DNA from: Escherichia phage ECOH1
Strand: one strand, 5' to 3'
Sequence record: ON540300.1
Length of the DNA stretch: 64,000 nucleotides
This document shows, piece after piece, positions 8,992 through 15,670 of the stretch. Position numbers and translations under genes: made by a program. Within the stretch, counting starts at the first letter, position 1, and every line of letters begins with the position of its first letter. The notes beneath the pieces were generated by a model. That model did not search any database and had not been told where the DNA came from. It saw nothing but the letters and a program-made list of their open reading frames with translations.

Positions 8992-9024
8992 CATCAAACA
9001 ACAAATGAGAGAAGAGAGTAAAAT

Positions 9025-10440
9025 ATGAGCGAATTATTTAAACATGCGCACCTTCATGCAGGTCGAACTGAAAATGGTGCTGTAAACCATACTTCATCAA
9101 TGTCTGCTCTTGTGGACTTTTACAAAGCTGCTGGTTCCAGCCGTAGCAATGTAGAAATCTTACCAGACCTGTTCTACAAAGCTTTGCGTGAGGATGTTGA
9201 TGTTGCAGTTCGTATTTTACTGCATATGCGAGATGTACGAGAAGGTATGGGTGAGCGTAAAGCTTTCCGAACTGTTTTACTTCAAGCGATTGAAGATAAA
9301 GTTTTAGAGCCTACACAGGTTCTTCGCATTATGGATAAGATTGCAGAACTTGGTCGTTTTGATGACTTCAAAATCTTCGTAGGTACTCGTTTTGAGACAG
9401 ATGCCTTCAAACATTTAGAAGCAGCATTACTAGACCCTGCAACAGCAGGTTTAGCGGCTAAGTGGTTACCACGAGTAAAACCACGCCACAAACAGTTTGT
9501 AAAACGTTTCTGTAAGTTTGCAAACTTAAGTGAGAAGGAGTATCGCACACTGTTATCTGCACTGTCTGATACGGTTGAGCAAAAAATCTCTGCTAATGAG
9601 TTTGGTAAGATTGACTACAGCAAGATTCCTTCACTCGCTGCTGCACGTTACCAAAAGCTCTTTAACCGTAAAGATGGGGAACGTTACAAAGCTTACATCG
9701 AGTCCCTCTCAAAAGGTGAGGTTAAGATTAACGCTGGTGCTGTTTACCCATACGATGTGATTAAATCTATCAAGTATGGTAATGCAGATGTTGCTAATGA
9801 GCAGTGGAAAGCACTACCAAACTGGATGGCAGAAGGTGAGAACATCTTGTGTATGACTGATGTTTCAAGCTCAATGTCTTGGGTGAATCTTGGTTCAATC
9901 ACTGCCCTTGATATTGGTGTATCACTTGCTTTGTATGTAGCAGAACGCAACACTGGTTGCTTTAAGAATGAGTTAATGGTTTACTCAACAAACCCTCACT
10001 TCATCGAACTGAGTGGTGATTTACGAAACCGTCATCGTCAGGTAATGCGTCATGTTGAATATGGTTCAACTAACTTACAAGCAGCTTTTGACCGTATTCT
10101 TGAGGTAGGTAAGCGAAACAACTTGACTCAGAAAGATATGCCAAGTAAGCTTATTATCTTCTCTGATATGGAGTTCACTCAGGTTGATGGAGCTAACGGT
10201 CGTACAAACTTTGAAGCAATTCAGAGTAAGTACAAAAAAGCTGGATACGAAATGCCACAACTAGTATTCTGGTACTTAGCAAACCGTAATGGTACTTGCG
10301 AAGTATCTGTTAAGGATAATGGTGTAGCGATGGTATCAGGGTTCTCTCCAGCCACTTTAAAAGCTCTGCTTGGTGGTGAGAAGTTTGACCCAATCAGCGT
10401 AATGCTCAAAGCAGTAATGATTGACCGTTACATCTGGTAA
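9025..10440 (+). CDS. vWA-domain protein with MIDAS motif; architecture resembles Ro60/TROVE (Rsr-like) RNA-binding proteins
   Basis: DxSxS motif DVSSSMS near residue 280, later hydrophobic IIFSDMEF strand, helical N-terminal 270 aa; homology unverified. Confidence 0.7.
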   Translation: MSELFKHAHLHAGRTENGAVNHTSSMSALVDFYKAAGSSRSNVEILPDLFYKALREDVDVAVRILLHMRDVREGMGERKAFRTVLLQAIEDKVLEPTQVLRIMDKIAELGRFDDFKIFVGTRFETDAFKHLEAALLDPATAGLAAKWLPRVKPRHKQFVKRFCKFANLSEKEYRTLLSALSDTVEQKISANEFGKIDYSKIPSLAAARYQKLFNRKDGERYKAYIESLSKGEVKINAGAVYPYDVIKSIKYGNADVANEQWKALPNWMAEGENILCMTDVSSSMSWVNLGSITALDIGVSLALYVAERNTGCFKNELMVYSTNPHFIELSGDLRNRHRQVMRHVEYGSTNLQAAFDRILEVGKRNNLTQKDMPSKLIIFSDMEFTQVDGANGRTNFEAIQSKYKKAGYEMPQLVFWYLANRNGTCEVSVKDNGVAMVSGFSPATLKALLGGEKFDPISVMLKAVMIDRYIW

Positions 10441-10458
10441 AAAGTTTTAAAAAGGGTA

Positions 10459-10488
10459 TTGACAATGTGTTTGATACCCTTTAATATG
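10459..10488 (+). promoter_or_regulatory. sigma70-like promoter inside palindrome AAAGGGTAT / ATACCCTTT
   Basis: TTGACA 10459-10464, TAATAT about 18 nt downstream; flanking 9-bp inverted repeat. Confidence 0.45.
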
Positions 10489-10549
10489 TTCTACATAGAA
10501 ACGAAATGAGAGCTTTTCTAAGATACTGAAAAATATTTTAAAAAAGTTC

Positions 10550-10578
10550 TTGACAACCACTAAAAAATAATGTTAAAG
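10550..10578 (+). promoter_or_regulatory. candidate promoter for tRNA array
   Basis: TTGACA at 10550-10555; weak -10; 30 bp upstream of first tRNA. Confidence 0.35.
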
Positions 10579-10605
10579 TGGTTACATAGAGTTTGAAAAG
10601 TTTAT

Positions 10606-10682
10606 CTCTGTTTAGCTCAGCTTGGTAGAGCGTTCCGTTTGGGGCGGTAAGGCCGGAGGTTCAAGTCCTCCAACAGAGACCA
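10606..10682 (+). tRNA. tRNA-Pro (anticodon TGG)
   Basis: Cloverleaf by eye: acceptor 7/7, D-stem gctc/gagc, anticodon loop ttTGGgg, T-loop TTCAAGT, CCA encoded. Confidence 0.8.
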
Positions 10683-10689
10683 AATTAAT

Positions 10690-10767
10690 GTTCCAGTAGA
10701 CAAAATGGTAAAGTCACCACTCTTTCAAAGTGGATATTTGAGGGTTCAAATCCCTTCTGGAACGCCA
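10690..10767 (+). tRNA. tRNA-Glu (anticodon TTC)
   Basis: Acceptor 7/7, perfect anticodon stem, loop ctTTCaa, T-loop TTCAAAT, CCA encoded. Confidence 0.8.
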
Positions 10768-10858
10768 GTTTTGACAGAAGACCAATTGCAGCAAACTTAA
10801 TCTTATTCATCTGACACGAAATCGGACAAAGAAGAGATTTGGTCTGGTCATTAAGAAT
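10768..10858 (+). ncRNA. structured spacer element A (5' ACAGAAGACCA ... 3' TGGTCTGGTCATT)
   Basis: Terminal stem AGACCA/TGGTCT; same family as elements at 10936 and 11441. Confidence 0.4.
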
Positions 10859-10935
10859 TGCGGGTATAGAGAAAGGGCGTCTCACATGTCTCATTAGCAT
10901 GGTATCGGCAGGTTCGACTCCTGCACCCGCCTCCA
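10859..10935 (+). tRNA. tRNA with CAT anticodon (Met or Ile-lysidine type)
   Basis: D-stem gaga/tctc, anticodon stem catgt/gcatg, loop ctCATta, T-loop TTCGACT; acceptor has one mismatch. Confidence 0.6.
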
Positions 10936-11018
10936 AATTTACAGAAGACCGTTTACAGCAATATTTATTAAATTTTTAGCGGAAAAATTGAAAGATACGG
11001 TCTGGTAATACTAAACAT
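10936..11018 (+). ncRNA. structured spacer element B (5' ACAGAAGACCGTTTACAGCAA ... 3' ACGGTCTGGTAAT)
   Basis: Terminal stem AGACCGT/ACGGTCT enclosing internal hairpin AATTTTT-agcgg-AAAAATT. Confidence 0.4.
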
Positions 11019-11095
11019 GGTTAGGAAGCACATAAGGTATGTGCGGTCGCCTGTTAAGCGAATGGCACAGGGTTCGAATCCCTGACTAACCGCCA
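11019..11095 (+). tRNA. tRNA-Asn (anticodon GTT)
   Basis: Acceptor ggttagg/actaacc, anticodon loop ctGTTaa, T-loop TTCGAAT, CCA encoded. Confidence 0.75.
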
Positions 11096-11104
11096 AATTT
11101 AAAT

Positions 11105-11192
11105 GTGTCGTTATCCCGTAGATGGTAGCGGTGGGGACTGTAAATCCCTTGTCATTGAGACTCGGTAGGTTCGACTCCTACACGGCACACCA
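11105..11192 (+). tRNA. tRNA-Tyr (anticodon GTA), long variable arm
   Basis: Acceptor gtgtcgt/acggcac, anticodon loop ctGTAaa, 15-nt variable arm, T-loop TTCGACT, CCA. Confidence 0.7.
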
Positions 11193-11198
11193 AATAAA

Positions 11199-11276
11199 GG
11201 TTATGTAGTTTAATCTGGTTAAAATACTCCCCTGTCACGGGAGATGATGAGGGTTCAAATCCCTTCGTAACCGCCA
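11199..11276 (+). tRNA. tRNA-Asp (anticodon GTC)
   Basis: Acceptor ggttatg/cgtaacc, anticodon stem ctccc/gggag, loop ctGTCac, T-loop TTCAAAT, CCA. Confidence 0.75.
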
Positions 11277-11440
11277 AATTATAATAAGTATTTCAAAATG
11301 ATGTTTGAGAGGGCTATTTAGCCCCTCCCTTAAAGAGTTCTTACGAGTATTCTTTAAAGGAGCAGAAGGCCAAATTCAGCAAGTTACTTAAAATTTCAAG
11401 CCAATTTAATTTTGAAAAATTTAAAACTTGGTCTGGCTCA

Positions 11441-11597
11441 ACAATTTTACAGAAGACCGTTTACAGCAAAACTTAAACAATCTATTTCTCCGGTAAAGAA
11501 AAGGCGAAGGTTCGATTCCTTCACTCGGCAGATGTCGAGTTGGTGTAATGGTAGCACTTAAGATGATAAACAACGGTCTGGTAATTATCTTTGTAGG
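11441..11597 (+). ncRNA. structured element C: permuted tRNA-like module (T-arm, closed acceptor-like helix, D-arm; no anticodon arm) inside a spacer-repeat stem
   Basis: T-arm GAAGG-TTCGATT-CCTTC 11517-11533; acceptor 3' strand ACTCGGC 11534-11540, loop agat, 5' strand GTCGAGT 11545-11551; D-arm GTGT-aatggta-GCAC 11554-11568; enclosing stem AGACCGTT 11466-11473 / AACGGTCT 11583-11590. Confidence 0.55.
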
Positions 11598-11730
11598 TGA
11601 GCTATTAAGCTTACCTGTGAGTATGCGACCACAAAGGGTGAAAGGGTAAATTCTAGATTTAAACCCAACAAGGCACATCGCTACAGACCTTAAGCAAGTC
11701 TGGGTAGCTTATCTACAAAGATAATTTAAT

Positions 11731-11806
11731 GGAAGTGTAGCAGAATGGTGATGCGGCAGACTTTTAATCTGACAGGCGATGGGTTCGAATCCCTCCACTT
11801 CTACCA
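11731..11806 (+). tRNA. tRNA-Lys (anticodon TTT)
   Basis: Acceptor ggaagtg/cacttct, anticodon loop ctTTTaa, T-loop TTCGAAT, CCA; T-stem has 2 mismatches. Confidence 0.65.
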
Positions 11807-11810
11807 ATAT

Positions 11811-11887
11811 GGTTCAGTCGCAGATAAGGTAATGCAGGGGTCTCATAAGCCCTATGAATGTGGGTTCGATTCCCATCTGAACCTCCA
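11811..11887 (+). tRNA. tRNA-Met (anticodon CAT), second copy
   Basis: Acceptor ggttcag/ctgaacc 7/7, anticodon loop ctCATaa, T-loop TTCGATT, CCA. Confidence 0.7.
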
Positions 11888-11888
11888 A

Positions 11889-11964
11889 GCTGGTATAGTT
11901 AAGAAGGTTATAACACTCCCCTGATAAGGGAACATCGGTGGTTCGATTCCACCTACCAGTACCA
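11889..11964 (+). tRNA. tRNA-Ile (anticodon GAT)
   Basis: D-stem gtta/taac, anticodon loop ctGATaa, T-stem ggtgg/ccacc, CCA. Confidence 0.75.
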
Positions 11965-11979
11965 ATTTCAATAAAGTTG

Positions 11980-12008
11980 TTGACATTGAGATGTGACTAC
12001 TTTATAGT
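11980..12008 (+). promoter_or_regulatory. sigma70-like promoter inside tRNA array
   Basis: TTGACA 11980-11985, 17-nt spacer, TATAGT 12003-12008. Confidence 0.6.
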
Positions 12009-12331
12009 AACTGAAAATGATTCAGCATATGTATAATTCAAACACCAATACATGAGCATTAGACGTAATGCAATGTGGGGAAATTTGTTGTACATATTCT
12101 GAATAGTTTTCGTTGCGTAGCGTCTATTTTGCAAATTTAAAATAAATGCAAACGACAATGTTTTTCTGGCAGTAGCTTGATAGGCTAAACACCAGTGAGG
12201 TCTTCCAATCCCTCATCAAAGAATTTGGCGTACTAGCCCACGGTATGATTAATAAGGTGGGCAACATTTTAAAGGGTATCCCTTATTGGGCTTGGCTTAA
12301 ATGCAATGAGTACCCTTTAAAATGTTAATTA

Positions 12332-12413
12332 CGGGGCGTATCTCAGCGGTCTTCTAAACCGCCGTTAACCGAGTAAGTGGAGTATGCGGGTTCGAGTCCT
12401 GCCGCCTCGACCA
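12332..12413 (+). tRNA. non-canonical tRNA-like gene, anticodon arm consistent with TCT (Arg)
   Basis: Perfect arm gcggt-ctTCTaa-accgc, T-arm and acceptor cggggcg/cgcctcg with CCA; D-arm region only about 7 nt and about 23-nt variable region. Confidence 0.45.
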
Positions 12414-12556
12414 ATTTAGTTAGCAGATTGCTTAGACGACCTTATCGGGTCTCCGTGTAAGGAGGTGGTCTGTATCTCATGTTTTCCAGAACATGTAAAT
12501 AATCTGAGAAGGGGCTTTACAGTGTTGTGAAAATACGGTAAGCTTCGAATTACAAT

Positions 12557-12639
12557 ATGGGACGATGTTAAGACTCTAAGGCATGAGCAACGGCTTCCAA
12601 CACCGTTTCAAAGGGGTTCAACTCCTCCGTCCCATGCCA
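12557..12639 (+). tRNA. tRNA-Trp-like (anticodon CCA) with extended D region
   Basis: Acceptor atgggac/gtcccat 7/7, anticodon loop ttCCAac, T-loop TTCAACT, CCA; D region about 7 nt too long. Confidence 0.5.
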
Positions 12640-12652
12640 AAGTCTTATTAGG

Positions 12653-12740
12653 GGTAGGTAGCGGCTAATGGTAGCCAAACTGTCTTGAAAACAGTTGCCA
12701 CTGTAGAGATACGGTGAGGGTTCGACTCCTTTACTTACCG
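12653..12740 (+). tRNA. tRNA-Ser (anticodon TGA), long variable arm
   Basis: 3-bp D-stem, anticodon loop ctTGAaa, about 20-nt variable arm, T-loop TTCGACT; CCA not encoded. Confidence 0.7.
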
Positions 12741-12997
12741 CCTAATAAGATTTACACCGTCCATGCTTGCTCGCATTTTCGGTTTATCCATCGTGTATTG
12801 TCGTACACACTGATAAAGCACCTAGTAGGTGTCACGGAGAAGAGATAATATCAAGCTCTCCAAAGGTTCTAGTCACCGGATTAAACAAGACTATGCAAAG
12901 ACCTATTTAGGTCTTTTTAGAGGGCTTCTAAGGTTATTACAGCTTGTTGTGGAACCTTGTTGCTTAGGTTCTTAGAAGTTCTCTAAAAAGATTTAAT

Positions 12998-13075
12998 GGG
13001 AGATTGACGGTAATTGGTAAACCTACCATCCTTAGAAGTTGGTGTTTGAGGGTTCGAATCCCTTGTCTCCTACCA
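12998..13075 (+). tRNA. tRNA with anticodon TAG (Leu box), short variable loop
   Basis: Acceptor gggagat/gtctcct, Leu-like D-loop taattggtaaa, anticodon loop ctTAGaa, 5-nt variable loop, CCA. Confidence 0.55.
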
Positions 13076-13082
13076 AATTAAT

Positions 13083-13158
13083 GCAGGTGTAGCAAAATGG
13101 TTATGCGGCTGACTCTTAATCAGTAAGACGATGGGTTCAATTCCCTCCACCTGTACCA
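13083..13158 (+). tRNA. tRNA-Lys (anticodon CTT)
   Basis: Paralog of Lys-TTT gene; anticodon loop ctCTTaa, T-loop TTCAATT, CCA. Confidence 0.7.
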
Positions 13159-13164
13159 AACATT

Positions 13165-13240
13165 GGGGATGTAGTTTACATGGTTAAAACATAAGTTTTG
13201 CAAACTTAAGTACAGGGTTCAATTCCCTGCTTCTCCACCA
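13165..13240 (+). tRNA. tRNA-Ala (anticodon TGC)
   Basis: D-stem gttt/aaac, perfect anticodon stem taagt/actta, loop ttTGCaa, CCA. Confidence 0.75.
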
Positions 13241-13246
13241 ATTAGT

Positions 13247-13321
13247 GCATCCATAGTTTAAACGGGAAAATTACAGTCTTCCAAACTGAGGTTGAGGGTT
13301 CGATTCCCTCTGGATGCTCCA
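13247..13321 (+). tRNA. tRNA-Gly (anticodon TCC)
   Basis: Acceptor gcatcca/tggatgc 7/7, anticodon loop ctTCCaa, T-loop TTCGATT, CCA. Confidence 0.75.
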
Positions 13322-13328
13322 AATTAAT

Positions 13329-13404
13329 GCTCCTATCGTATAATTGGCTATTACGGTTGCCTTGTAAGCAACTTATCAGGGTTCGAATCCTTGTGGGAGC
13401 ACCA
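13329..13404 (+). tRNA. tRNA-Thr (anticodon TGT)
   Basis: Anticodon stem gttgc/gcaac perfect, loop ctTGTaa, T-loop TTCGAAT, CCA. Confidence 0.8.
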
Positions 13405-13499
13405 ATTCAGAGGTCAAGTGAAAGACCGCTGGTGTCAACTGAAGACCGTAACAAATTCCACGGAGTTGAGTTAGCGGCACAACTTCAGACCTCTTCCAT
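13405..13499 (+). ncRNA. structured spacer element D, degenerate relative of element C
   Basis: Contains CTGAAGACCGTAACAA (5' motif variant) and GGAGTTGAGTTAGCGGCAC resembling the acceptor-5'/D-arm part of element C; outer stem AGAGGTC/GACCTCT. Confidence 0.35.
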
Positions 13500-13574
13500 A
13501 CTCGCTTAGTTTATATGGTAAAACATCACCCTTACAAGATGAAGAAAAAGGTTCAAGTCCTTTAGTGAGTACCA
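13500..13574 (+). tRNA. tRNA-Val (anticodon TAC)
   Basis: D-stem gttt/aaac, anticodon loop ctTACaa, T-stem aaagg/ccttt, CCA. Confidence 0.7.
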
Positions 13575-13575
13575 T

Positions 13576-13653
13576 GTTCCAGTATCCCAATTGGCAGAGG
13601 ATGCAAGCTCAAACCTTGTACTAGTGACGGTTCGAATCCGTCTTGGAACACCA
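13576..13653 (+). tRNA. tRNA with anticodon CAA (Leu box), short variable loop
   Basis: D-arm tcc-caattggcaga-gga (Leu-like), anticodon stem gcaag/cttgt, loop ctCAAac, 6-nt variable loop, CCA. Confidence 0.6.
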
Positions 13654-13658
13654 ATTTT

Positions 13659-13734
13659 GCAGGATTAGTTCAAATGGATAGAGCAACAGTCTACGAAGCT
13701 GTTAATAGGGGTTCGAATCCCTTATCCTGCGCCA
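13659..13734 (+). tRNA. tRNA-Arg (anticodon ACG)
   Basis: Acceptor gcaggat/atcctgc 7/7, anticodon loop ctACGaa, T-loop TTCGAAT, CCA. Confidence 0.75.
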
Positions 13735-13753
13735 AGTTAAAGAGGCTATTTAG

Positions 13754-14311
13754 ATGAGATATTTGAAGTATGCTTCATGGATTTTCTTAGCTTTGTTAGA
13801 ACCATTTGCAGCAATCTTAGCAGTTATCTTAGCACCTTTTGTAGTTCCATTCTACAGTGAGAAGAAAGGACATCTACCTTTCGGGTTCAGATGGATGGAA
13901 ACTTATGACAACCCAATTGATGGCGATGAAGGTCATGTCAAAAGATGGGCTAAGATTAGAAAGATTGGTAAGCTTGGTATCTATATGCAGAGAGTCGGTT
14001 GGCTCTGGAGAAACAAAGCTTATAACTTCTCTTACCATGTGTTAGGAAGAGATGTAAAAGATGTTACTAAGTGGAAAGGTAATATCAATGTAAGTTCTAA
14101 CCCTGAAGATAATCAGACAGGTTATCTCCTAATGTGGAACAGTAATGCTTGGGGGTTATTCGCTTTTGTACCATCAATTAAAATCTTTGGTAAACAATTC
14201 TACTGGAGAATTTATGTTGGATGGAAACTTAAAAGTGTTGTCCCAGAAGAAAGAGCATTCTCAAGGGAAAGAGTTATGTTGGCATTCTTTATCCATCCAC
14301 TAAGAAAATAA
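13754..14311 (+). CDS. membrane protein encoded inside the tRNA array (185 aa)
   Basis: ORF track; N-terminal hydrophobic segment WIFLALLEPFAAILAVILAPFVVPF; preceded by AGAGGCTATTTAG motif. Confidence 0.6.
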   Translation: MRYLKYASWIFLALLEPFAAILAVILAPFVVPFYSEKKGHLPFGFRWMETYDNPIDGDEGHVKRWAKIRKIGKLGIYMQRVGWLWRNKAYNFSYHVLGRDVKDVTKWKGNINVSSNPEDNQTGYLLMWNSNAWGLFAFVPSIKIFGKQFYWRIYVGWKLKSVVPEERAFSRERVMLAFFIHPLRK

Positions 14312-14319
14312 AGATTTAA

Positions 14320-14395
14320 AGGGGATTAGTTTACAAGGTTAAAACCTCGGTCTTTGAAATCGAAGAAGTTGGTTCAATTCCAACATCCCCCGCCA
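14320..14395 (+). tRNA. tRNA-Gln (anticodon TTG)
   Basis: D-stem gttt/aaac, anticodon loop ctTTGaa, T-stem gttgg/ccaac, CCA. Confidence 0.75.
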
Positions 14396-14397
14396 AT

Positions 14398-14476
14398 GCT
14401 CCATTACTCCAATTGGCAGAGAGGCCAGACTTAAAATCTGTGTTATGTATCGGTTCGAATCCGATATGGAGTACCA
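14398..14476 (+). tRNA. tRNA with anticodon TAA (Leu box), short variable loop
   Basis: D-arm ctc-caattggcaga-gag (Leu-like), anticodon loop ctTAAaa, 7-nt variable loop, T-stem atcgg/ccgat, CCA. Confidence 0.6.
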
Positions 14477-14481
14477 AATTT

Positions 14482-14557
14482 AGCGGTATAGCATAACTGG
14501 CAATGCAGCAGTCTCTGAAGCTGTCTTATTAAGGTTCAAATCCTTATGCCGCTGCCA
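14482..14557 (+). tRNA. tRNA-Gln (anticodon CTG)
   Basis: D-stem gcat/atgc, anticodon loop ctCTGaa, T-stem taagg/cctta, CCA. Confidence 0.75.
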
Positions 14558-14588
14558 CTTCTAAGGATTCTTACGAGAGTCCTTAAAT

Positions 14589-14664
14589 GTGGCCTTATCA
14601 TAAATGGTAATGACCCATGCTGTGAACATGGTCTATACGGGTTCAAATCCCGTAGGTCACCCCA
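14589..14664 (+). tRNA. tRNA-His (anticodon GTG)
   Basis: Perfect anticodon stem ccatg/catgg, loop ctGTGaa, discriminator C, CCA; no encoded G at -1. Confidence 0.75.
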
Positions 14665-14669
14665 ATTTA

Positions 14670-14744
14670 TAGTCCAAGTAGCTTATATGGTTAAAGCGCG
14701 TGTCTGAAAAACATGAGAAGAGGGTTCAAATCCCACTGGGCTAC
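14670..14744 (+). tRNA. tRNA-Phe (anticodon GAA)
   Basis: Acceptor tagtcca/tgggcta, anticodon stem cgtgt/acatg, loop ctGAAaa, T-loop TTCAAAT; CCA not fully encoded. Confidence 0.65.
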
Positions 14745-15013
14745 CAATTTCAAAGGTGCTTAATGAAAGAGATGACAGAACAAGGTAAGGAGATTTTTAA
14801 TCTCTTAAAAACCGGTAGAGGGTTTTCTAATCCCTTATTACTGGTGCAGCAGTTCTCGGTGGAACCGTAGCTGCCTCTACATCACTTGTAAGCTCTATTA
14901 GCTCTGTAACAGACCCTACAATAAAGGATAAACTTGTTGCTGCTGGACTTACAACAGTTCTGCTTAACAGCTTTACAACGAGTCTGACAAGCACTACATC
15001 AACCACTAAGACA

Positions 15014-15496
15014 TTGGCAGATTACGGTCAAAAGTCCATTGATGAGTTTTCATCACGTATGCAGGTAGCAAAAGGATATTCCAATGTTATGGGTGCAGCA
15101 GGAGAGCAAGTCGGTTGCACACCATTTAGTGGTATTATGGGTGTTGCTACAGAGTACGGTCAAAAAGCTATTGACACAATTAACAGTACACTAGATGGTG
15201 TTAATGATGTATTAAGTGACTTACAAGATGCTATTGATAAAGGTCTTGATACTGTTTCTGATTTAGCTAATCAAGCTGTTAGTAAGATTAATGAAGGTAT
15301 CTCGAAGATTACAGCTTATGCAGATGAAGTTGTGCAGATGATTGAAGAAGAAGCTGCCCTTATTGCAGAGTACCTTAAAACGAATATCAATGGGTTCTTA
15401 GCAGGTATCTTACCAGACTGGTTTGATGATGCTTGTAAAACTGGTGTAATTGACACTATTGCAACACCAGAAATGAAGAACGCATTACAGAAATAA
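15014..15496 (+). CDS. hypothetical protein (at least 160 aa); N-terminus uncertain
   Basis: ORF track start is TTG; the same frame stays open and protein-like back to 14831 with no ATG or GTG. Confidence 0.5.
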   Translation: MADYGQKSIDEFSSRMQVAKGYSNVMGAAGEQVGCTPFSGIMGVATEYGQKAIDTINSTLDGVNDVLSDLQDAIDKGLDTVSDLANQAVSKINEGISKITAYADEVVQMIEEEAALIAEYLKTNINGFLAGILPDWFDDACKTGVIDTIATPEMKNALQK

Positions 15497-15497
15497 T

Positions 15498-15590
15498 GGA
15501 AGATTAACCCTAAAAGGTAAGGGAGCAGTTTGCTAAACTGCCAGTAGCTGAGAAATCGGTGTACCAGTTCAAGTCTGGTATCTTCCTCCA
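15498..15590 (+). tRNA. tRNA-Ser (anticodon GCT), long variable arm
   Basis: Acceptor ggaagat/atcttcc 7/7, perfect anticodon stem gcagt/actgc, loop ttGCTaa, about 21-nt variable arm, T-loop TTCAAGT, CCA. Confidence 0.75.
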
Positions 15591-15594
15591 ATTT

Positions 15595-15670
15595 GAATCC
15601 GTGACAGAAATGGCTATGTACCTGTCTGCAAAACAGGTTTATAAGGGTTCGAGTCCCTTCGGATTCTCCA
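15595..15670 (+). tRNA. tRNA-Cys (anticodon GCA)
   Basis: Acceptor gaatccg/cggattc 7/7, perfect anticodon stem cctgt/acagg, loop ctGCAaa, T-loop TTCGAGT, CCA. Confidence 0.8.

Follow-up and report, generated by a model that had tools for sequence, protein, structure and literature searches.

What kind of RNA is encoded between tRNA-Asp (11199-11276) and tRNA-Lys (11731-11806) in the tRNA array of Escherichia phage ECOH1 (ON540300.1), and does it belong to the gene for a Ro60-like protein located upstream? The window, i.e., the whole stretch of DNA analyzed here, comprises 64,000 nucleotides and stems from a FelixO1-like Felixounavirus myophage; 312 phage records match its positions 9000-13000 at 80-99% identity. 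A first-pass annotation made from the letters of the sequence had described a T-arm, a closed 7-bp acceptor hairpin and a D-arm in this order between the two tRNAs, about 1 kb downstream of the Ro60-like gene, and had related this element to bacterial YrlA-type Y RNAs. The order can be read directly in the sequence and RNAalifold agrees with it, and the distance is correct as well (gene stop at 10440). The element is the fourth of four modules sharing a terminal stem and is here called module 4. It is a real, conserved and structured RNA, beyond what is expected by chance, and judging from its sequence it is non-coding. It is likely that module 4 is a Y-RNA-like partner of the divergent Ro60-like protein, and the most fitting description is a variant of the Ro60/Y-RNA system in which the protein family is divergent, the docking motif differs and the cargo is a fully permuted tRNA. 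Module 4 is composed of the following parts:

11447..11584, + strand: module 4, a stem and motif enclosing an apparently circularly permuted tRNA, between tRNA-Asp and tRNA-Lys
11447..11461, + strand: 5' strand of the enclosing stem, with the outer TTAC (11447-11450), the internal loop AGA (11451-11453) and the basal AGACCGTT (11454-11461)
11462..11469, + strand: motif UACAGCAA (UUACAGCAA including the preceding U), unpaired, directly 3' of the 5' strand of the stem; putative protein-contact site
11485..11501, + strand: V hairpin, apparently a vestigial anticodon arm, TTTCT-CCGGTAA-AGAAA (5 bp, 7-nt loop), with a linker 5' of it and AGGC 3' of it
11506..11522, + strand: T-arm with canonical T-loop, GAAGG-TTCGATT-CCTTC
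11523..11540, + strand: closed acceptor-like helix, ACTCGGC-AGAT-GTCGAGT (7 bp, 4-nt loop)
11541..11557, + strand: U8-G9-like TG and D-arm GTGT-AATGGTA-GCAC (11543-11557) with GG in its loop, followed by a linker
11572..11584, + strand: 3' strand of the enclosing stem, with AACGGTCT (11572-11579), a bulged G (11580) and GTAA (11581-11584); it holds the CUG end of the family

The 8-bp helix AGACCGTT/AACGGTCT, which had been proposed to form from conserved spacer motifs, is present, covaries and occurs in four copies; moreover, it is extended by an outer 4-bp helix (TTAC/GTAA). At the RNA level, the 5' strand of the stem reads UUAC-AGA-AGACCGUU-UACAGCAA. Module 4 spans 127 nt from the G to the CUG and 127-138 nt overall.

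The fold is carried by covariation. Ten relatives were aligned with MAFFT without fitting to any structure (alignment A2), and RNAalifold with nothing imposed returned exactly the outer and basal helices, the V hairpin, the T-arm, the acceptor helix and the D-arm. In A2, 98.7% of the cells are paired compared to 37-52% if the partners are slid, compensatory changes are found at three of the seven acceptor pairs among these close relatives, and the motif UACAGCAA, which is present family-wide, is invariant. Over 14 related contigs the acceptor occurs as ACTCGGC/GTCGAGT, ACACG/CGTGT and ACCCTTC/GAAGGGT, the last with an 8-nt loop, and the T-arm is almost unchanged with a single exception (C72 to A in L008); among the relatives the D-arm is conserved and the loop of the acceptor hairpin ranges from 2 to 8 nt. 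Three covariance models were used for searching, R1 for module 4, R2 as second-generation family model and R3 as amoeba-only model. In distant phages, R2 yielded 51 matches at E ≤ 0.01, every one on the strand of the gene. In the alignment of these matches, which was fitted to the model, double-sided changes occur at 28 of 28 pairs and 89.8% of the cells are paired compared to 38-45% when slid; the family-wide pairing reaches 97.8% for the T-arm, 95.3% for the acceptor and 94.6% for the D-arm, with all seven acceptor pairs covarying. The stem in the distant loci is closed by a G-C pair in 48 of 49 rows, and its remaining pairs vary freely and covary. Related phages thus keep the element with covariation, i.e., the opposite of the ordinary tRNA or missing conservation that the first-pass annotation had named as reasons to abandon its proposal.

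The stem also occurs elsewhere in the array. The motif AGAAGRCC..TT.CAGCAA is present in four copies on the + strand (10776, 10943, 11364 and 11451), each with a downstream GGTCTGG partner, and three of these copies belong to small modules:

10772..10850, + strand: module 1, small, with TGAC/GTCA, loop AGA/G, AGACCAA/TTGGTCT and UUGCAGCAA; between tRNA-Glu and tRNA-Met
10939..11008, + strand: module 2, small, with TTAC/GTAA, AGACCGT/ACGGTCT and UUACAGCAAU; between tRNA-Met and tRNA-Asn
11360..11439, + strand: module 3, small, with GAGC/GCTC, AGGCCAA/TTGGTCT (one G.U pair) and AUUCAGCAA

Next to module 4 itself (R1 176.5 bits, R1 being built from it), the models detect module 1 (R1 40.6, R2 39.5 and R3 10.1 bits), module 2 (R1 50.6 bits; R3 16.1 bits, E 0.002) and module 3 (R2 35.2 bits). 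Both the outer helices (TGAC/GTCA, TTAC/GTAA, GAGC/GCTC) and the basal helices (AGACCAA/TTGGTCT, AGACCGT/ACGGTCT, AGGCCAA/TTGGTCT) covary between the paralogs, suggesting that pairing occurs inside each module and not across the intervening tRNAs; the alternative in which each GGTCTGG would pair across the tRNAs with the next CAGAAGACC was rejected for this reason. The resulting family signature, which occurs with or without a tRNA-like insert, consists of (A)AG, a variable helix, 1-3 nt and CAGCAA, with the complementary helix and CUG following downstream. All four modules lack annotation, or lie beneath a spurious "hypothetical protein", in the records examined.

Is the signature linked to the Ro60-like gene or to the tRNAs? 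Eighty loci with homologs of the protein were retrieved, 65 of them at only 39-46% identity. R1 finds the same architecture beside the gene in distant phages, e.g., with 59.8 bits in L063 and 57.9 bits in L018. An independent scan for motif plus pairing gave 134 matches on the gene strand, whereas the other strand had 4 and shuffled sequences about 1. At least one match was present in 53 of the 80 loci. A non-circular test starting from the 5' motif alone resulted in 108 sites with an exact partner compared to 24.5 ± 5.1 for swapped helices; the sites comprise 61 distinct helix sequences (5-mers), and of the 82 sites that were mapped, 54 are no more than about 1 kb away from the ends of the gene. 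It would be conceivable that the modules are not protein partners and act in cis as processing or stability elements of the tRNA operon, i.e., as entry sites for RNase III/RNase E or as folding insulators, their proximity to the gene being a by-product of both lying in tRNA regions. All four modules of the window do lie between tRNAs in one apparent transcription unit, tRNAs are found near the gene in many distant loci too, and the 150-nt spacer adjoining module 4 has a stem of about 24 bp resembling an RNase III substrate. However, the seven modules of L018 lie in 13 kb free of tRNAs, L070 combines at least five modules with a single tRNA about 3 kb off, and in many loci a module begins 30-40 nt past the stop of the gene with no tRNA adjoining. 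The modules without tRNAs in L018 show that the association is with the gene and not with the tRNAs. Furthermore, the covariation within modules (CCAA/TTGG in module 1, CCGT/ACGG in module 2), the conserved unpaired 9-nt motif and the tRNA-shaped insert are unexpected for a plain processing stem, making a function purely in cis unlikely.

A related element was observed in L063 (8329-8428), where the AG-helix-CAGCAA...CUG stem surrounds an unpermuted tRNA body with D-arm, anticodon arm and T-arm. Its anticodon arm is intact (UCAGU-CUUUUAA-ACUGA, Lys-UUU), its acceptor stem is reduced to about 3-4 bp, and the Rfam tRNA model aligns at positions 5-66 with 55.7 bits while ARAGORN makes no call. 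This element could serve for display of a Lys anticodon loop or as its decoy. An unpermuted tRNA body on the same stem suggests that this stem can carry different tRNA parts in a modular way.

The proposed protein partner is encoded upstream of the array:

9025..10440, + strand: gene for a Ro60-like protein of 471 amino acids, with a helical ring and a vWA domain carrying a DVSSSM MIDAS motif; proposed partner of the modules

In a fold comparison, the model of this protein shows the full-length Ro60 fold, i.e., the helical-repeat ring and the C-terminal vWA domain with MIDAS, and the phiLo Ro60 structures 9l5y and 9kop are among its best matches. At the sequence level, Pfam returns DUF2828 and DUF7788 only, the PHROGs label is "RNA-binding protein", an NCBIfam search returned nothing, and hhalign to a TROVE phage protein gives a weak match (66% probability, E 5.6e-5) of only 88 columns around the MIDAS motif. 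The protein is thus Ro60-like by its modeled fold and not by its sequence, with the fold comparison alone being decisive. For the ortholog in phage Bas63, a 2024 preprint used the term Ro60-like and described it as counter to the Ppl defence system; Y RNAs were merely conjectured there ("some tRNA genes are possibly Y RNAs") and no RNA was identified. Module 4 is present in Bas63 (JohannRWettstein, MZ501086) at 97.9% identity. The modules would therefore supply candidate RNA partners for the Ro60-like protein of a major, genetically tractable genus of coliphages and Salmonella phages (FelixO1, Bas63). Moreover, the Ro60/Y-RNA paradigm would reach past TROVE to the large DUF2828/DUF7788 family of phages, giant viruses and eukaryotes, which would use a different docking motif and the same tRNA-mimic logic.

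A fold search in BFVD showed the DUF2828-type Ro60-like fold in Pithovirus LCPAC304 (TM 0.88, 27% identity) and also in Marseillevirus LCMAC202, Mimiviridae ChoanoV1, Cafeteria roenbergensis virus (CroV) and Catovirus, i.e., in giant viruses of protists. "Mimiviral-like" DUF2828 proteins were reported independently in a paper on tardigrade genomes; a search of the literature on DUF2828, UCP015417 and DUF7788 yielded nothing else of relevance.

How close is module 4 to known Ro60-associated RNAs? It was shown that YrlA RNAs are encoded beside a TROVE gene and consist of a Ro60-binding stem with GNCGAAN0-1G in its 5' strand and the elements V, T, AS and D (Chen et al., 2014, PMC4201824). The order in module 4 is the same, i.e., terminal stem, V, T-arm, closed acceptor stem-loop, D-arm and terminal stem. 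In both, a T-arm-like stem-loop carries the T-loop consensus of tRNAs, conserved nucleotides occur in the T- and D-loops, the D-arm lies 3' of the T-arm with a stem-loop in acceptor position (AS) in between, and a gene for a Ro60-shaped protein adjoins; small cargo-less paralogs (YrlB-like) lie nearby. The 7-bp acceptor is shared with the YrlA of M. smegmatis, in which a closed acceptor of 7 bp lets RNase P cleave, with CCA being added afterwards (PMC4201824). In contrast to YrlA, the stem of module 4 carries AG-helix-UUACAGCAA...CUG instead of GNCGAAN0-1G, the partner would be a DUF2828/DUF7788 protein and not TROVE/vWA_Ro60, the V hairpin is a recognizable anticodon arm of a whole tRNA permuted at position 26/27, and the module sits within a tRNA operon. 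The cargo is therefore YrlA-like in its predicted structure while the docking stem is different. GGCGAAG at 11503-11509 was considered as Ro60 motif and rejected, as it overlaps the variable loop and the T-stem and its C is changed to A in L003, L010, L012 and L013.

The search with the Rfam YrlA model (RF02553) that had been suggested along with the YrlA comparison gave no match to module 4 and thereby no membership in this family. A positive control run alongside detected the YrlA core beside Bxz1 gp220 (32.5 bits, E 2e-4), showing that RF02553 works on phage YrlA, though under its gathering score of 69 bits; R2 finds the Bxz1 YrlA through its T/AS/D core only (31.4 bits). Sister modules beside DUF2828-type genes in distant phages reach 41.4, 38.2 and 35.8 bits with RF02553, all relatives of module 4 being below the gathering score. 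Of the YrlA-type logic, the order of elements and scores of sisters at or above the Bxz1 control have stood, whereas module 4 itself is unmatched and lacks GNCGAA.

A second precedent is given by phage phiLo, for which binding of Ro60 to the RNAs Yrl1/Yrl2 and recruitment of the host PNPase were demonstrated (PMC12135203). As in ECOH1, small stem-bulge-stem RNAs adjoin the gene of a phage protein with Ro60 fold. Different from ECOH1, the phiLo protein is a canonical TROVE protein and its RNAs carry a CGAA motif; the term "tRNA-like" is absent from the text of the phiLo paper (PMC12135203).

What is the tRNA-shaped cargo? With the Rfam tRNA model, 11480-11530 score 23.2 bits and are read as an anticodon arm followed by variable loop, T-arm and 3' acceptor strand. 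The search proposed earlier thus gave an alignment, the score of module 4 (22-23 bits, model positions 14-71 only) being under the 29-bit cut-off. The statement that there is no anticodon arm has to be revised, as the model places the relic hairpin 11485-11501 as anticodon arm. In genomic order module 4 gives no ARAGORN call, i.e., no colinear cloverleaf of a functional tRNA. The parts were rejoined in silico to 5' acceptor strand, D-arm, the 22 nt preceding the T-arm, T-arm, 3' acceptor strand, discriminator and added CCA, and in this form ARAGORN calls a 74-nt tRNA-Thr(GGU) in the ECOH1 window and in five relatives. As the call appears only after rejoining, the tRNA is interrupted at position 26/27 while its acceptor end is closed; the topology given by the first-pass annotation holds for the closed acceptor end and not for an opening in the anticodon. 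The cargo is apparently a whole circularly permuted tRNA derived from tRNA-Thr(GGU). The anticodon-like loop is CCGGUAA in the window, the canonical CUGGUAA in L010/L011, 6 nt long in three relatives and decayed in L012/L013. As it is not kept, it behaves as the poorly conserved V stem-loop of YrlA and not as a decoding element.

Permuted tRNA genes, e.g., those of the red alga Cyanidioschyzon merolae, are matured via a circular intermediate to functional tRNAs. Module 4 resembles them in that the 3' part of the tRNA lies upstream of the 5' part with a short linker across the acceptor, and in that un-permutation gives a cloverleaf. It differs in that its break is flanked by a conserved stem of the protein-docking type and in that relatives have not kept the anticodon loop. 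A fully permuted tRNA as module of a ribonucleoprotein would bear on the origin of tRNA mimics from tRNA arrays.

The closed acceptor allows for a reading without the Ro60-like protein, in which module 4 mimics a tRNA and serves as decoy or substrate; it would be opened by RNase P and completed with CCA to a nicked tRNA-like RNA, titrating a host tRNA-directed enzyme or defence nuclease or possibly being aminoacylated. Such a fate is supported by the 7-bp closed acceptor, the RNase P determinant in M. smegmatis YrlA (PMC4201824), and by N-CCA (gCCA, aCCA, cCCA; discriminator plus CCA), which opens the closed-acceptor loop in 6 of about 17 distant modules (L018 5369 and 5748, L040 7941, L063 8432, L069 7466, L070 5115) and also starts the loop in module 4 of the Felix-like L012/L013, with a chance of about 1/64 each. 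Moreover, a sister module shows the intact Lys-UUU anticodon arm. The N-CCA in the loop looks like an encoded 3' end of a permuted tRNA, which would predict opening by RNase P and a free CCA end. Given the RNase P precedent and the N-CCA loops of the sisters, the claim of the first-pass annotation that the element cannot be aminoacylated is not secure. However, the ECOH1 loop reads AGAT and has no CCA, conservation does not extend to the anticodon-like loop, and an independent decoy leaves unexplained both the docking stem and motif shared with cargo-less modules and the linkage to the gene; it is therefore as improbable as a function purely in cis.

A module of this kind could also be a decaying pseudogene, a remnant of a tandem tRNA duplication or deletion in which the 3' part of one tRNA-Thr adjoins the 5' part of the next, or a false positive of tandem tRNAs. 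It was cautioned that tandem or dimeric tRNAs imitate the T...D order (Chen et al., 2014, PMC4201824), and the models do yield such false positives, which were excluded (window 12992-13129, L028 1750-1931, L040 1859-1991). Furthermore, the anticodon-like hairpin is decaying and one relative has lost half of the module. In this relative, L007 (8447-8620; probably Salmonella phage SP116, KP010413), module 4 and tRNA-Lys are fused at their T-arms by a deletion that took out the acceptor and D parts (3' half), the spacer RNA of 150 nt and the 5' portion of tRNA-Lys, suggesting that T-arms serve as recombination sites in the array. Against decay stand the acceptor strands, which lie only 2-8 nt apart and covary as a hairpin, the enclosing covarying stem, which is foreign to tRNA genes, and the presence of module 4 in 245 phage records at a coverage of at least 80%; it is unannotated or beneath a "hypothetical protein" among the 40 records listed. 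In addition, the topology recurs by homologous genes in phages of only 40-45% protein identity, clear of ARAGORN tRNAs, ruling out a tandem-tRNA artefact, so that a pseudogene or false positive is very improbable. An 85-amino-acid minus-strand open reading frame (11421-11678) is present and several GenBank records annotate a hypothetical protein there, but many records have nothing annotated at this place, indels of 2, 3 and 4 nt among relatives break the frame and the variation follows pairing and not codon position, ruling out that the region encodes a small protein.

Several observations weigh against a Y-RNA-like partnership. RF02553 gives no match to module 4 at E ≤ 10, neither in 2.4 kb nor alone (156 nt), and the GNCGAAN0-1G Ro60-binding motif is absent from its stem. 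The protein has no Pfam match to TROVE (PF05731) or vWA_Ro60 (PF25045), and phmmer and hmmsearch against PDB were not significant. No strict-motif match is found in 27 of the 80 loci, and the loss of the 3' half in L007 indicates that at least this phage can do without module 4, provided that no assembly artefact is involved. The single-sequence fold energy of module 4 is unremarkable (z -1.05), alignments A3 and A4 were fitted to the model, the E-values of the purpose-built, short-calibrated models R1-R3 are rough, and a literature search turned up no transcriptome paper for Felixounavirus.

Taking the Y-RNA-like partnership as a basis, the following mechanism can be proposed. The four modules would be transcribed together with nine tRNAs from promoters near 10460-10580, and the modules would be freed as the flanking tRNAs are processed by RNase P and at their 3' ends. 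As suggested by co-occurrence, each of the four RNAs would be a ligand of the Ro60-like protein through its docking stem and motif; this putative docking site, common to modules 1-4, is the G-C-closed terminal helix with the 5' single-stranded UUACAGCAA and the 3' CUG. The cargo, a presumably permuted tRNA with closed acceptor, would retain the elbow formed by T-loop and D-loop as well as a 7+5-bp acceptor/T minihelix, and by analogy to the Y RNA tethering PNPase to Ro60, it may recruit or sequester a host factor reading the elbow or the acceptor; candidates are RNase P, the CCA-adding enzyme, an exoribonuclease or a defence nuclease. The resulting ribonucleoprotein might serve phage RNA metabolism or counter-defence.

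Does the docking stem have relatives outside of phages? Dictyostelid Class I RNAs start with AAG and an invariant G, have a terminal stem conserved in structure and not in sequence, whose 5' strand is followed immediately by an 11-nt motif (CCUUACAGCAA), and continue with a variable middle and a CUGU end (Kjellin et al., 2021, PMC7919456). They are 42-65 nt long (ancestral about 60), have a DUSE promoter about 60 nt upstream, were reported as unique to Dictyostelia, and have the RRM protein Rnp1A as the only named binder of four; tRNA-like elements, Y RNA, Ro60 or viruses are not mentioned in this paper (PMC7919456). The phage modules share the short G-closed terminal stem with kept structure and free helix sequence, the variable middle and the occurrence as multi-copy paralogs, and the small modules are also about 60 nt long (median 60 nt in the phage set). 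In the phage set the commonest forms are the 5' triplet AAG, the ends CUGU and CUGA and the motif UUACAGCAA. In the window, AAG precedes the helix and CUG follows it (here CUGG) in all four modules at the DNA level; UACAGCAA is the counterpart of the 11-nt motif, UUACAGCAA of modules 2 and 4 covers 9 of its 11 nt, and the full CCUUACAGCAA is found in L021, L026 and other loci.

These similarities are recovered by covariance models. The Rfam model RF01414 (Dicty_Class_I_RNA) aligns to stem and motif when module 4 is scanned alone, and it aligns end to end to module 2 (20.1 bits, E 0.17) as the sole non-tRNA match among 4227 families. R3, trained on 49 published Class I RNAs from six dictyostelids only, was run on about 1 Mb of phage sequence and gave 36 matches at E ≤ 1, 33 of them on the gene strand; all 16 matches at E ≤ 0.01 are full length and on the gene strand, most of them tens to a few hundred nt past the stop of the gene. 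The best one is L021 (36.2 bits, E 8e-6) with GGUU-CCUUACAGCAA...GGAACCUG, and distant modules reach 29-36 bits; 100 kb of Bxz1 sequence (L081 and L082) contain no R3 match. With filters off, the top four R3 matches in 10400-12000 are modules 2, 1, 4 and 3 (16.1, 10.1, 8.7 and 5.9 bits). The window modules (RF01414 20.1 and 12.8 bits; R3 16.1, 10.1 and 8.7 bits) are far under the family thresholds, i.e., the Rfam gathering score of 41.5 bits and the covariance-model cut-off of at least 25 used by Kjellin et al., and the tie to Class I RNAs is for this reason a strong lead and not a class assignment. As such, it appears credible from sequence and predicted structure, and previously unreported. 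There are differences as well: module 4 with its full tRNA insert is longer (127-138 nt), though a few amoebal members reach 85-141 nt, the host is bacterial and the carrier viral, sigma-70-like promoters take the place of a DUSE promoter, and the window modules have an extra outer helix with the AGA/G internal loop.

T-arms were also observed in three amoebal Class I RNAs of the supplement of Kjellin et al. (2021, PMC7919456), i.e., in asu_can_20, ppa_can_99 and DpuR-22 (CUAGG-UUCGAUC-CCUAG, UUGG-UUCGAAU-CCGA and GGGG-UUCGAAU-CCCC). In asu_can_20 a closed 9-bp hairpin with a 4-nt loop follows straight after the T-arm, matching the phage order of T-arm and closed acceptor. A motif search of about 6% of the Dictyostelium proteome (supplement of Kjellin et al.) found only an unrelated vWA protein.

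It is possible, though we regard it as tentative and rather less probable than its contrary, that phage modules and Class I RNAs form one class, in which stem, UUACAGCAA and CUG dock DUF2828-type Ro60-like proteins. If true, Class I RNAs, whose function has been unexplained since 2004, would be the "Y RNAs" of a second Ro60-like ribonucleoprotein lineage extending from bacteriophages to giant viruses of protists and to eukaryotes. In this case the stem would display a whole permuted tRNA, a CCA-ending acceptor/T/D half or a Lys-UUU body (L063), and the displayed tRNA parts could be baits or decoys in RNA surveillance and phage-host conflict. The common stem and motif would give the phage and the amoebal systems a candidate protein partner, and the roughly 20-year-old question of Class I function would gain a specific candidate, a DUF2828 Ro60-like protein as binder of stem and motif.

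Regarding the operon, ARAGORN predicts 25 tRNAs at 10606-15670, with a promoter-like site upstream of the first one:

10550..10579, + strand: sigma-70-like promoter, TTGACA-18-TAAAGT with TG, from a consensus scan only; one of two such sites shortly before the first tRNA and probable start of the operon with modules 1-4

A second promoter-like site is located at 10459-10487 and the next one on the + strand at 11980-12008, both being consensus matches only, and a consensus scan found no + strand terminator between the promoter sites at 10459-10579 and 11980. This arrangement suggests a common transcript of modules 1-4 and nine tRNAs.

Between module 4 and tRNA-Lys, a spacer RNA of 150 nt (11581-11730, + strand) is predicted to be unusually stable, with a minimum free energy of -50.2 kcal/mol (z -5.5). 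Its closing stem of about 24 bp covaries (TTTGTAG/CTACAAA compared to TTTGCAG/CTGCAAA), and it is found at the same place with 152-156 nt in the relatives examined, its interior diverging except for GATTCTAGATT; Rfam gives no match to it. Further downstream, 12332-12410 (+ strand) is tRNA-like without a D-arm and with a long variable region (Rfam tRNA 31.7 bits, no ARAGORN call), and 12013-12330 (+ strand), 3' of the strong promoter-like site 11980-12008, gives weak matches to permuted tmRNA (RF04321, 21.7 bits) and tmRNA (13.5 bits). By these matches, the array may hold further non-canonical tRNA-derived RNAs. Finally, genes for HNH homing endonucleases are found at differing points of the region in several relatives (e.g., D4, I14.1, FelixO1, BPS17S6), suggesting that the array is a hotspot for homing-endonuclease insertion.

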